The notes: generated from the sequence alone by a model not told the origin. Positions 38,446 to 46,302 are shown, numbered from the stretch's first letter. The stretch: DNA of 64,000 bases from Patescibacteria group bacterium (GCA_038064895.1 JBBTSA010000002.1:8942-72941); one strand, 5' to 3'. Numbers and translations: made by a program.

Positions 38446-40576
38446 AATGTCTCCTAAATTTCACCGGGGAAAGGGCCGTCCCCGCACCACTCCCTTTTTA
38501 AAATTTTATTTAAGAAAAATCAATAAGAATCTATATTCAAAAATTCCTGGCAAAACCAAAGTAAGTATAGCGGCATTGTCAATACTCCTAGCAATCTATT
38601 TCTATACCAACTGGGTGGTGCATATATCTGTCCAGCTGCCTTCCCCAAAAACCCTTTCTTACCAGTCCTCCCCTCTTACAACAGAAGTTTATGACAGAGG
38701 AGGCAATCTTTTATACCGTTTTTATGAAGGCCAAAATAGAAGCCTGGTGAAACTTAAAGATCTACCCGCAATTTTGATAAAGGCAACTATATCTGCCGAA
38801 GATAAAAATTTTTATTCCCATATCGGGTTTGATCCTACGGCTATCCTTCGGGCAAGCTACCATAATCTTACCCAGAGCACGCAGGAAGGAGCATCCACAA
38901 TCACGCAACAGCTTATTAAAAATAGTCTGCTTACGCCTGAAAAAACAATTACCAGAAAGATAAAAGAAATAATTTTGGCTTTTTGGGCGGAAAGGATCTT
39001 TTCTAAAGACCAAATCCTTGAAATGTATTTTAACGGAGCGCCCTACGGCGGAACTGCCTGGGGCATTGAAGCGGCCTCTCTTACATATTTTGGAAAAAGC
39101 AGCAGGGAACTTACTTTGCCTGAAGCAAGCTTTTTAGCAGGACTTCCTGCTTCCCCTACGGAATTTTCCCCTTTTGGCATAAAACCTGAACTTGGAAAAC
39201 AAAGACAGGCCTGGGTTTTAAACCGCATGGTTAAGGATGGTTTTATTACAAAGGAGGAAGCAGAAGAGGCTTTAGGAGCAAAGCTTGCTCTTCGACCTCA
39301 ATCCAATAATATTTCGGCTCCACACTTTGTTTTTTATGTTAGGGATTTGTTATCAAAACAATTGGGATCAAAAGTTATCTCTACCGGAGGATTAAAGATT
39401 ACAACAACTTTGGATTTGGAGTTGCAAAGCCAAGTTGAAAAAATAGTCAAAGAAGAAGTAGAAGCGCTGGCTTCTCTAAATGTCCGGAATGGGGCCGCAA
39501 TGGTCACAGATCCCAAAACAGGCCATATTTTGGCAATGGTTGGATCAAGGGATTACCATTACCCCCTCTTTGGCAATTACAATGCAACGCTGGCGCTTCG
39601 CCAGCCGGGTTCCTCAATAAAAGTTGTCACATATGCAACCGCATTCAAACAGGGATACACGCCGGGCAACACTGTTTTGGATACACCGGTTGTGTTTAAG
39701 GATGAATGGGGAAATAGGTACGGCCCCGTAAATTATGACGGTTCTTTTCATGGGCCCGTGTCCATCCGTCAGGCTTTAGGCTCATCATATAATGTTCCTG
39801 CTGTTAAAATGCTTGCAGCGGTTGGCCTGGATGCAATGATTCAAACAGCCAAAGATATGGGGATAACAACATTTAATGATCCAAAAAGATATGGTTTGTC
39901 ACTAACTTTGGGGGGTGGAGAGGTAAAAATGGTTGATATGATGGCAGTTTATGGAACCTTGTCCCAGGAAGGATTTTTGAGAAGGCCTACTCCAATACTT
40001 AAAGTAACTGATTCGTATGGAAATGTTTTGGATGAGTATCAGGATAGGAAAATTCAAAGCTTAAGGCCGGAAATTGCCTACCTTTTAACCTCAATTTTAT
40101 CTGATAACTTGGCAAGGACTCCTGCTTTCGGACCATCATCACTCCTTAACATTCCGGGGTATCAATTGGCAGTTAAAACAGGAACTTCCGATAATAAAAG
40201 GGATAACTGGACATTTGGATATACACCGCAGTTTGTAGTTGGGGTTTGGGTTGGAAATAATGATAACTCCTTAATGCACCCCTCTTTAACATCAGGAGTT
40301 ACAGGAGCTGCTCCAATTTGGAATAAAATTACAAAGTACATGATTCAAAAAAATCCACCTACAGCTTTTAAGAGGCCTGAGGGAATAGTTGAGGCAAGAA
40401 TTGACGGAAGACGGGATCTGGCCATATCTGATGTACTGCCTAAAGGATTAACAAAAGTTAGAAAAGATGGAGAAAAAACAATCTTTTCAGATTCATTTTC
40501 TTCCTATGCTACCTCATCTGCCCAAGCCCCGATTCAATCGGGGCAAGCAGCAACAAAAAATACAATAACTAATTAG
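38441..40576 (+). CDS. Class A penicillin-binding protein (transglycosylase + transpeptidase)
   Basis: GT51 motifs EDKNFYSHIGFD and STITQQLIKN. TM anchor. SSIK (SxxK), SYN (SxN) and KTGTSDN. Track ORF start 38192 is a read-through of the repeat, so ATG 38441 or 38447 is preferred. Confidence 0.85.
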   Translation: MTMSPKFHRGKGRPRTTPFLKFYLRKINKNLYSKIPGKTKVSIAALSILLAIYFYTNWVVHISVQLPSPKTLSYQSSPLTTEVYDRGGNLLYRFYEGQNRSLVKLKDLPAILIKATISAEDKNFYSHIGFDPTAILRASYHNLTQSTQEGASTITQQLIKNSLLTPEKTITRKIKEIILAFWAERIFSKDQILEMYFNGAPYGGTAWGIEAASLTYFGKSSRELTLPEASFLAGLPASPTEFSPFGIKPELGKQRQAWVLNRMVKDGFITKEEAEEALGAKLALRPQSNNISAPHFVFYVRDLLSKQLGSKVISTGGLKITTTLDLELQSQVEKIVKEEVEALASLNVRNGAAMVTDPKTGHILAMVGSRDYHYPLFGNYNATLALRQPGSSIKVVTYATAFKQGYTPGNTVLDTPVVFKDEWGNRYGPVNYDGSFHGPVSIRQALGSSYNVPAVKMLAAVGLDAMIQTAKDMGITTFNDPKRYGLSLTLGGGEVKMVDMMAVYGTLSQEGFLRRPTPILKVTDSYGNVLDEYQDRKIQSLRPEIAYLLTSILSDNLARTPAFGPSSLLNIPGYQLAVKTGTSDNKRDNWTFGYTPQFVVGVWVGNNDNSLMHPSLTSGVTGAAPIWNKITKYMIQKNPPTAFKRPEGIVEARIDGRRDLAISDVLPKGLTKVRKDGEKTIFSDSFSSYATSSAQAPIQSGQAATKNTITN
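40520..40576 (+). repeat. PBP1A 3'-end sequence (copy 1 of a triplicated att-like motif ...GCAGCAACAAAAAATACAATAACTAATTAG)
   Basis: Encodes ...SGQAATKNTITN*. Near-identical copies at 40909-40963 and 46274-46302. Confidence 0.75.
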
Positions 40577-40685
40577 AAGCTATCTTTTTCTACGAAGCAT
40601 AGTTGGAAGAGCCATTAAAACAAGGACTAAGGCTAAAATTGCTAAAATTAAATAAAACAAAAGTCCACTATCCATAACACTTAAT

Positions 40686-40877
40686 TCACCTCCTTAACCA
40701 CAAACTTAATGTCCAAAAGACGATTGCTGCAAAGATACCAGCTGTGATCTTAACTGGATCATATTTATCAAATACAGCTGGCAAACCAACTGAAGCCACC
40801 GATATTAAAGCCAAATCAGATGCTATATCTGACATTTTGTCCAGTTGATTCTGATTTAATCTTGATTCAATAAACAC
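40686..40877 (-). CDS. Small membrane protein (63 aa)
   Basis: Two hydrophobic segments. Lies in the 387-bp segment between att-like copies 1 and 2. A 31-aa hydrophobic peptide ORF (40585-40677, minus) also lies here. Confidence 0.3.
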   Translation of the reverse strand: MFIESRLNQNQLDKMSDIASDLALISVASVGLPAVFDKYDPVKITAGIFAAIVFWTLSLWLRR

Positions 40878-40908
40878 TACAAAATCATTATAGCATAGTT
40901 GAGGAAAT

Positions 40909-46017: not shown

Positions 46018-46256
46018 ATATAGCAGGTTATCAAATTAGCAAAATACAAGCTTTTACAATAGGATTTTTACTAGTAGGCATTATTATCGGAGTCTTTTTA
46101 GTACAAAGACAACAAACTTTAAAAAGTAAAGCCAGTGAAGAGCTCTACAATAAAATTAATGTCCGGGATGCAGAGTGTTTTGGTGAAGGTAGCTCTTATA
46201 CCTGCCGGACTCAATCTGATCAAGTTGAAATAGATATAAGCAATCTACTCCCTTAA
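46014..46256 (+). CDS. Small single-pass membrane protein with conserved LVQ(R/K)xQ juxtamembrane motif and Cys pair (paralogue of 50651-50923)
   Basis: 80 aa. ISKIQAFTIGFLLVGIIIGVFLVQRQQTLKSKA is ~60% identical to ISKKQAIITLILLLGIVFGVILVQKPQIFKGRA of the other copy. ATGA overlap with the preceding giant gene. Confidence 0.55.
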   Translation: MNIAGYQISKIQAFTIGFLLVGIIIGVFLVQRQQTLKSKASEELYNKINVRDAECFGEGSSYTCRTQSDQVEIDISNLLP

Positions 46257-46273
46257 TCCAATACCACCCAGCC

Positions 46274-46302
46274 TCAGCCACAAAAAATACAACAACAAAT
46301 TA
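46274..46302 (+). repeat. att-like copy 3 (CAGCCACAAAAAATACAACAACAAATTAG)
   Basis: In-frame SATKNTTTN* again. Preceded by ACCACCCAGCCTC, a 13-mer that recurs at 51786-51798. Confidence 0.65.

Follow-up and report, generated by a model that had tools for sequence, protein, structure and literature searches.

Duplicated and displaced 3′ ends of two convergent genes at a strain-variable insertion hotspot in a Daviesbacteria-like bacterium

Genomes of the candidate phyla radiation (CPR)/Patescibacteria are tiny, gene-dense and poor in classical mobile elements, and how these bacteria exchange strain-specific surface proteins and defence or toxin-antitoxin (TA) modules is poorly understood. In a 64,000-nt stretch of DNA (GCA_038064895.1 JBBTSA010000002.1:8942-72941; hereafter, the window) from a Microgenomates (Daviesbacteria-like) CPR bacterium, the end of the gene for the class-A penicillin-binding protein PBP1A recurs twice downstream of the intact gene, which raises the question of what kind of event leaves dead copies of a gene end among accessory genes. 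A preliminary description of the sequence took the copies for attachment (att)-like sites of successive site-specific integrations. We find that the 3′ ends of both PBP1A and its convergent partner, an ASCH-domain gene, have been duplicated and displaced, and that the junction between the two genes is a strain-variable insertion hotspot. The repeats may well be scars of successive insertions at this stop-to-stop junction, that is, gene ends displaced through one-sided homology combined with an illegitimate joint.

The live PBP1A 3′ end (P1) and its two relics (P2 and P3) are direct copies on the + strand, and their pairwise local alignments are given in Table 1. When the window was scanned with a 25-nt consensus allowing up to three mismatches, the sole matches were at 40551-40575, 40938-40962 and 46278-46302, all on the + strand, and none of 100 dinucleotide-preserving shuffles gave a match. 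A 13-nt stretch, ACAAAAAATACAA, is common to the three copies without any difference, and the 2-nt indel between P1 and P2 puts the upstream part of P2 out of frame. Because an independent Logan assembly (L164, run ERR3858113, 12,849 nt) is identical to window positions 40184-53032 with 0 mismatches, the repeats are not an artefact of assembly. The three copies of the preliminary description are therefore real, although the third ends with its stop codon at 46303 and not at 46302.

The second displaced gene end, A1, lies directly to the left of P3, where its TTAA overlaps the stop of an 80-aa gene. With up to 3 mismatches allowed (0.01 matches expected), it is the sole match in the window to the ASCH tail of a relative (L162). 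From the ASCH tails of the relatives L165, L162, L166 and L081, A1 differs at 2-4 of its 23 positions, as against 6 of 23 for the window's own tail; it ends in VLD-stop, whereas the live tail ends in VLS-stop with different codons, and the mismatches between the two are concentrated in the last codons. This difference in allele type points to a donor/recipient origin rather than to copying in place. Moreover, the order at P3, first the ASCH tail and then the PBP tail, is the reverse of that at an empty site; A1-P3 is therefore a new junction of two gene ends rather than the flank of an att site. The two relics overlap by 1 nt (C at 46275), possibly by up to CAGC, which is too short to score as microhomology. 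A possible second ASCH relic, A3, is tentative: the p value of its alignment is ~0.003 before correction for ~30 tests, and the relic was not recovered in ungapped scans. A scan of all loci for ASCH-tail relics returned the window only. A further candidate, a degenerate ASCH relic to the right of P3 (46300-46327), was not demonstrable; these nucleotides may be part of the TA cassette's 3′ flank.

The state of the junction without an insert can be seen in relatives. The closest PBP1A homologues in a search of 5.8 billion proteins are 71-75% identical; scans of GTDB genomes and JGI metagenomes gave homologues of at most 59% identity, which served for synteny and are too distant for a clean empty-site test. 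In four relatives (L162, L163, L165 and L082; PBP 58-75% identical, with L082 at 58%) the PBP1A-ASCH junction is empty and the convergent stops abut or overlap. In L162 the PBP1A stop overlaps the ASCH stop (..AATTAATCCAAAACTACCCAGCC..), and in L163 the two stops are 5 nt apart. L162 11582-11956 and L163 4983-5365 align to window positions 51785-52164 directly after their PBP genes; blastn alignments pass there from PBP into ASCH without a break, so that the window has 11.2 kb extra, an island from 40577 to 51774 with P3 in its middle. Three other relatives have unrelated cargo at the junction, namely L081, L166 and L161, the last with genes for 222-aa, 221-aa and 34-aa proteins and AbiEii (+), followed by orthologues of the window's AbiEii (-)/DUF6922 pair and cassette 2. 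In the window, the order is PBP1A with P1, small operon x, P2, cassette 1, A1 and P3, the AbiEii TA module, cassette 2, possibly A3, the VapBC TA module and ASCH. Thus, the proposed insertion at the PBP1A 3′ end stands, the downstream sequence being absent from the four empty orthologous loci, but its proposed extent (40520-46302) does not, since the island reaches 51774 and is about twice the claimed span.

Table 1 Features of the PBP1A-ASCH interval and of a second repeat-flanked cassette in the window
Feature	Coordinates	Strand	Evidence or content
P1, live PBP1A 3′ end (..SAQAPIQSGQAATKNTITN-stop)	40519..40576	+	alignment
P2, displaced, frameshifted PBP1A 3′-end relic (..SAQAATKNTTTN-stop)	40908..40963	+	48/55 aligned bases identical to P1 (40519-40575 vs 40908-40962), 2-nt indel
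P3, displaced PBP1A 3′-end relic (..ATKNTTTN-stop)	46275..46303	+	26/29 identical to P1 (40548-40576 vs 46275-46303); 29/35 to P2 (40937-40971 vs 46277-46311)
A1, displaced ASCH 3′-end relic	46253..46275	-	23 nt, TTAATCCAATACCACCCAGCCTC; reverse complement encodes GWVVLD-stop (conserved ASCH C-terminus)
A3, possible second ASCH 3′-end relic (tentative)	50921..50948	-	gapped alignment to L163 ASCH tail; directly after cassette 2
PBP1A (class-A PBP) gene	38192..40576	+	Pfam Transgly 1.3e-58, Transpeptidase 1.4e-22
ASCH-domain gene, live; right island border	51775..52164	-	Pfam ASCH; convergent partner of PBP1A at empty sites
Segment x, two-gene small-membrane-protein operon	40580..40877	-	open reading frames of 63 aa (40686-40877) and 31 aa (40580-40675); convergent with PBP1A
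Cassette 1	41008..46256	+	the three genes below
887-aa membrane protein	41008-43671	+	Ig-like and PP2C domains
780-aa secreted protein	43675-46017	+	
80-aa single-transmembrane protein	46014-46256	+	
AbiEii toxin	46328-46960	-	Pfam
DUF6922 partner of AbiEii	46909-47211	-	Pfam
Orphan Phd/YefM-like antitoxin	47373-47597	-	no recognisable toxin partner; between DUF6922 gene and cassette 2
Cassette 2	47689..50923	+	165-aa transmembrane protein, 826-aa secreted protein with HELGH motif, 87-aa single-transmembrane protein
VapBC-type TA module	51018..51668	-	PIN toxin 51018-51398 (Pfam PIN 1.3e-15); RHH antitoxin 51399-51668 (Pfam RHH_1 2e-4)
Perfect 32-nt direct repeat flanking MazE/PIN TA cassette	24624-24655 and 25343-25374 (span 24624..25374)	+	32/32 identical; Pfam MazE_antitoxin, PIN

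The junction of L161 carries a PBP-tail relic of its own. At 14597-14626, the positional counterpart of P3, a relic ending in AGNKNITTN-stop lies beside the stop of the orthologous AbiEii (-) gene; it is 80% identical to P2 and is followed by a 39-nt ASCH-tail relic, in the order of an empty site. The live PBP tail of L161 (AKIESGATN-stop) resembles that of its sister L162, and relic and live tail are only ~57% identical, with no shared core. A search of L161 for a repeat of its live PBP tail at up to 20% mismatch found none. As a separate observation, L161 13932-15293 contains two distantly related AbiEii genes (26% identical) placed tail to tail, with the PBP- and ASCH-tail relics between their stops.

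No integrase, resolvase, transposase or recombinase domain was detected by Pfam in any of the 46 open reading frames of at least 150 aa of the 64-kb window, nor in the small open reading frames of the island, which agrees with the preliminary description. The excisionase-family HTH that it named as the only recombination-related candidate (61782-62042) proved to be a MerR/HTH_17 protein encoded 15 kb away, in the midst of genes for ribosomal proteins and regulators. The repeat core, CAACAAAAAATACAA, is absent from 2.9 million viral contigs. Folding gave no fold or dyad in P2 and P3 (z = +1.2 and +0.9) and no attC-like or dif-like structure; scans found neither promoters nor terminators at the repeats, and positions 40000-52500 have no Rfam match. 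An integron cassette array is not supported, there being no hairpin at P2 or P3, no IntI integrase in the window and no such Rfam match. Nor does the locus resemble a transposon or insertion sequence: the duplications are 23-59 nt and variable in length, the insert ends have no inverted repeats and the window has no transposase. P1 does contain an 8-bp, GC-rich hairpin (40526-40544, -9.8 kcal/mol, z = -3.3) upstream of the shared core. Its arms, GCCCCGAT and ATCGGGGC, are formed by a 21-nt lineage-specific insertion (PIQSGQA) in the live PBP1A tail, which is bounded by GCCCAAGC and GGGCAAGC and is missing in the PBP tails of all relatives compared. The end of the hairpin, at -32 from the stop, adjoins the points where P3 (-29) and the L161 relic (about -31) begin on the left, and the hairpin may be a breakage hotspot.

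As the most likely mechanism and order of events, DNA of a related strain would enter the cell, probably by transformation, and undergo one crossover in a conserved flanking gene, PBP1A or ASCH, while its other end would be attached by an illegitimate joint a few tens of nucleotides inside the recipient's gene end. With the donor's complete gene end in place, the gene would stay intact, and what had been the end in the recipient (23-57 nt) would be shifted downstream as a dead relic. Repetition of this displacement would give P1, P2 and P3, and the A1-P3 joint would be the place where two alternative versions of the PBP-to-ASCH interval became joined in tandem, head to tail. Only short duplicates (23-59 nt) would persist, presumably because homologous recombination removes long ones. 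No element-encoded integrase or specific att core would be involved. Such displacement would explain the intact PBP1A, the presence of relics of both PBP and ASCH, the permuted A1-P3 joint, the allele differences of A1 and the L161 relic, the missing integrase and the ordinary cargo.

The closest parallel is found in orphan 3′ ends and immunity genes downstream of the genes for type VI secretion system (T6SS) effectors, Rhs and CdiA, where sequential displacement has been attributed to homology-facilitated illegitimate recombination (HFIR) (PMC5361080), a process described in PMC3240628. As in those arrays, short homologous 3′ fragments stand in series downstream of a conserved gene, each module bringing its own end and pushing the previous one downstream, no integrase is present, and displaced ends of different allele types occur. 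In the window, the series comprises P2 and P3 after PBP1A, and A1 and possibly A3 on the ASCH side. Relic and live end belong to different alleles in the case of A1 and L161; P1, P2 and P3, which are 83-90% identical, are ambiguous on whether they represent separate alleles. In contrast to the T6SS, Rhs and CdiA arrays, the gene is here a housekeeping one instead of a polymorphic toxin gene, the displaced pieces measure only 23-57 nt and are functionless, and the ASCH end is displaced too, giving the permuted ASCH-PBP joint. The cargo also differs, consisting of surface-protein cassettes, TA modules and a small operon, and the host is a CPR bacterium. A gene for the transformation protein DprA at 9563-10651 is consistent with DNA uptake, as weak evidence.

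Scars of the same type, unrelated in sequence, are found at other loci. In the window, a MazE/PIN TA cassette, minimal and with its own promoter and operator, is inserted where fmt (+) and a 419-aa HTH gene (-) overlap at their ends. The perfect 32-nt repeat on its two sides is the former overlap of the two genes, encoding FKDFLNGYPDF of fmt on the + strand and the end of the HTH protein (ENPGSRLGSL-stop) on the other; when fmt is read on across the right copy, an ancestral end, GYPDFPIQHIA-stop, is obtained, with the stop at 25390-25392. At a second locus (L169, also L170-L174), the AbiEii/DUF6922 pair has a 216-aa gene on one side and a convergent G5/3D gene on the other and is flanked by a 59-nt repeat (9622-9680 and 10640-10698) with 44 of 59 positions identical (75%). 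Of the two copies, the live one forms the 3′ end of the G5/3D gene and the other is a dead relic (LGFDDTKTADQKTCFIDIYLL, followed by two stops); the alignment score of 43 compares with a maximum of 28 in 500 shuffles.

The AbiEii/DUF6922 pair is itself mobile. Its homologues are 75-87% identical at the amino-acid level in many Daviesbacteria-like genomes, whereas PBP homologues reach at most 75%; being closer than any PBP1A homologue, they indicate that the cassette moves horizontally. The pair occurs at no fewer than five unrelated loci (window 46328-47211; L161, L168, L169, L175 and L177), in four cases immediately next to a convergent gene's 3′ end, and is preceded by a conserved -10 box, TGGTAAAAT. 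It behaves as a ~0.95-kb cassette that moves without a recombinase of its own. No flanking duplication was found around the cassette at L168, L175/L176 and L177 (three of five AbiEii loci), and duplication is therefore not an obligatory product of transposition chemistry. Duplications of this type thus stem from the target, vary in sequence between loci and need not occur. A search of the literature on DUF6922 and on TA cassettes with long target duplications returned nothing relevant.

Several findings weigh against displacement by one-sided homology. No donor allele, either PBP-cassette 1-ASCH or PBP-x, was found, and the proteins of cassette 1 have no homologues. Sliding-window identity of PBP1A to five relatives is flat at ~0.7 and reveals no mosaic signal, in a test that has almost no power because the relatives are only ~72% identical. 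Microhomology at the A1-P3 joint amounts to just 1 to ~4 nt. On the left, P3 and the L161 relic begin at nearly the same distance from the stop, and a 13-nt core is identical in all three copies, both of which would also fit the core of a recombinase; a true target duplication accounts for the perfect repeat at 24624/25343 no less well than does a donor/recipient pair; and the inspection for recombinases covered 64 kb of a genome of ~1 Mb.

In a first alternative, close to the preliminary description, the PBP tail is an attB site, and non-autonomous elements similar to cis-mobilizable elements (CIMEs) were integrated serially by an integrase encoded elsewhere, leaving attL, attI and attR. Its precedent is the accretion of ICEs (integrative and conjugative elements) and CIMEs at the 3′ end of fda in Streptococcus (ICESt1/ICESt3; PMC5704250, PMC7563491), with which the window locus shares three gene-3′-end repeats around two adjacent inserts, inserts without an integrase of their own and an intact target gene. 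Direct repeats of the gene end flank the inserts as they do in CIMEs (P1/P2 around x; P2/P3 around cassette 1 and A1), their 13-nt core is identical, relatives have empty sites, and the edges of P3 and the L161 relic fall within ~2-4 nt of each other. Nevertheless, we consider this alternative unlikely. Unlike the fda arrays, the locus shows neither integrase nor excisionase, neither conjugation nor mobilisation genes and no core structure of the recombinase type; the window is without a recombinase and its repeats without a dyad or hairpin at the core. The same core is not found at both ends of homologous insertions elsewhere, since the live tail and the relic of L161 have none in common; an ASCH-tail relic stands on the "element" side of P3, where it is unexpected in an attP site; and the end of the neighbouring gene is duplicated as well. 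Insertion in at least two successive events that kept the PBP reading frame is upheld, but att sites of a site-specific element are not, because P3 lies in mid-island, the A1-P3 order is permuted, L161 has no shared core, P1 and P2 enclose a housekeeping-type operon of 330 nt, similar scars elsewhere have unrelated sequences, the repeats have no dyad and a tail duplication is missing from all 143 other PBP1A loci. The absence of the core from viral contigs points the same way.

A second alternative attributes the duplications to the insertion process itself. Dedicated or replication-based insertion at abutting convergent ends, by staggered nicks and fill-in or by template switching, would produce a target duplication of ~25-60 nt whose copies are identical at birth, which suits the 32/32 repeat around the minimal MazE/PIN cassette, the 59-nt repeat around the AbiEii cassette in L169 and the 29-57-nt repeats around x and cassette 1, all of them at convergent gene junctions. 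It is less easily reconciled with the three loci where the AbiEii cassette has no duplication, and with relics that differ strongly from the live ends, as in L161 and in A1. There are no terminal inverted repeats and no candidate enzyme, and across 168 loci gene tails are duplicated no more often than internal segments (10/2760 vs 10/2761 and 7/2759), most of the matches being tandem paralogues (PBP paralogues, and a tandem duplicate in L086). We therefore give such a process a low probability. Equally doubtful is its wider form, a hitherto undescribed route in these integrase-poor, ultra-compact CPR genomes that adds small cassettes (TA modules, small operons, surface-protein cassettes) at abutting or overlapping convergent genes and regenerates both ends through a 25-60-nt target duplication, by a trans-acting enzyme or template switching; that the PBP1A-ASCH array, the 32-nt MazE/PIN repeat and the 59-nt repeat of L169 are all products of one mechanism is likewise improbable on balance.

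In-place tandem duplication of the PBP-to-ASCH interval by unequal crossing-over, with the copies diverging into cassettes 1 and 2, is very improbable. The A1-P3 joint is exactly the novel joint it would create, and the two cassettes end in genes that are distantly homologous (33% identical); yet the non-coding relics are 83-90% identical, while the cassettes have no detectable DNA similarity and their large proteins are equally dissimilar, so that the joint must be far younger than the split of the cassettes. The allele type of A1 also differs from that of the live ASCH tail, and P1-x-P2 is left unexplained. Chance similarity, which the preliminary description had itself considered a possible refutation, or an assembly artefact can be dismissed almost entirely, for although the core is A-rich, the shuffles gave no match, the similarity spans 57 nt including sequence that is not A-rich, and the independent assembly is identical.

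Returning to displacement by one-sided homology, two further systems help to place the locus. The defining features of tycheposons are reportedly a tyrosine recombinase or transposase module and a tRNA as target. Compared with tycheposons and tRNA-linked island arrays (bioRxiv 10.1101/2020.12.28.424599), the locus is alike in being a hotspot with tandem cargo and degenerate copies of the target 3′ end in between, in a streamlined genome, and unlike in having neither such recombinase or transposase modules nor a tRNA target. With replacement flexible genomic islands (PMC4033161), it shares a strain-variable interval between conserved genes, surface-exposed proteins and alleles that are wholly different between close lineages, but flank-to-flank replacement leaves no duplicated ends, whereas here alleles have been added in tandem with scars. 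The locus is best filed as an event of a kind already known, in a new setting, the CPR bacteria, and not as an att-site island.

On this basis, at least three or four nested insertions would be legible in the locus, with both flanking ends kept as dated scars. Together with the empty or alternative sites of relatives, the nested record indicates that no element-encoded integrase is needed for accessory cassettes to accumulate. In metagenome-assembled genomes, such hotspots could be recognised by a simple signature, a short dead copy of the final 25-60 nt of a gene that lies a few kilobases downstream. The scar type is rare overall, as the counts over 143 other PBP loci and 168 loci indicate. 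Should a dedicated process that duplicates targets at convergent ends exist after all, it would be a new route of TA-cassette mobility.

The cargo consists of several independent units. Between P1 and P2, the preliminary description saw tiny hydrophobic peptides; small membrane proteins are indeed encoded there, but by a minus-strand two-gene operon, x, with homologues in L166 and a Shine-Dalgarno sequence, AAGGAGGTG, 8 nt before the ATG of the 31-aa gene. The homologous pair in L166 (~1960-2232, minus strand) lies between rpmG and tRNA-Trp, with 40% identity for the 63-aa protein (E = 8e-14) and 10 of 25 identities for the 31-aa protein. The window counterpart of that site (28205-28244) is only 38 nt long, and the operon has therefore changed place. 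A 10-nt repeat, AGCATAGTTG, at 40595 and 40894 is no more than expected by chance. Segment x is an ordinary conserved operon rather than a mobile-element module.

The "giant" proteins of the preliminary description have sizes of 887 and 780 aa. In the search of 5.8 billion proteins the 887-aa protein found no homologue except itself, and the 780-aa protein has no relatives in viral contigs. The 80-aa protein of cassette 1 is 33% identical to the product of the last gene of cassette 2, and cassette 2 has orthologues in L161 at 43% and 32% identity.

Outside the island, the gene order is GH1, EamA, a 232-aa gene (-) and PBP1A (+) on the left, and ASCH (-), a FabH-like gene (-), SecE, NusG, L11 and L1 on the right. 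For PBP1A, NCBI calls a later start (709 aa), and P0001, a protein of an NCBI metagenome-assembled genome that is named PBP1A family and encoded on a 76.6-kb contig, is 100% identical. Exact look-ups with the complete PBP reading frame and with P0001 returned no match, either because of the different start call or for want of an indexed record. The long 5′ extension of the PBP1A reading frame upstream of the NCBI start contains one copy (38370-38392) of a 23-nt direct repeat, GAYCCCGAGCTTGTCGAGGGRGA, whose other copy is at 27581-27603 (21/23 identical). PaaX central Cas2-like small proteins are encoded at 19019-19516 (-) in the window and at 25-522 and 6324-6836 in L162; neither Cas1 nor a CRISPR array was seen with them. 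Finally, the 780-aa and 826-aa secreted proteins (43675-46017 and 48183-50663) have no detectable sequence similarity and a common architecture, with a signal peptide, a linker rich in Pro/Thr/Glu and a short C-terminal module rich in Cys, and each of their genes is followed by one for a homologous single-transmembrane protein of 80-87 aa.

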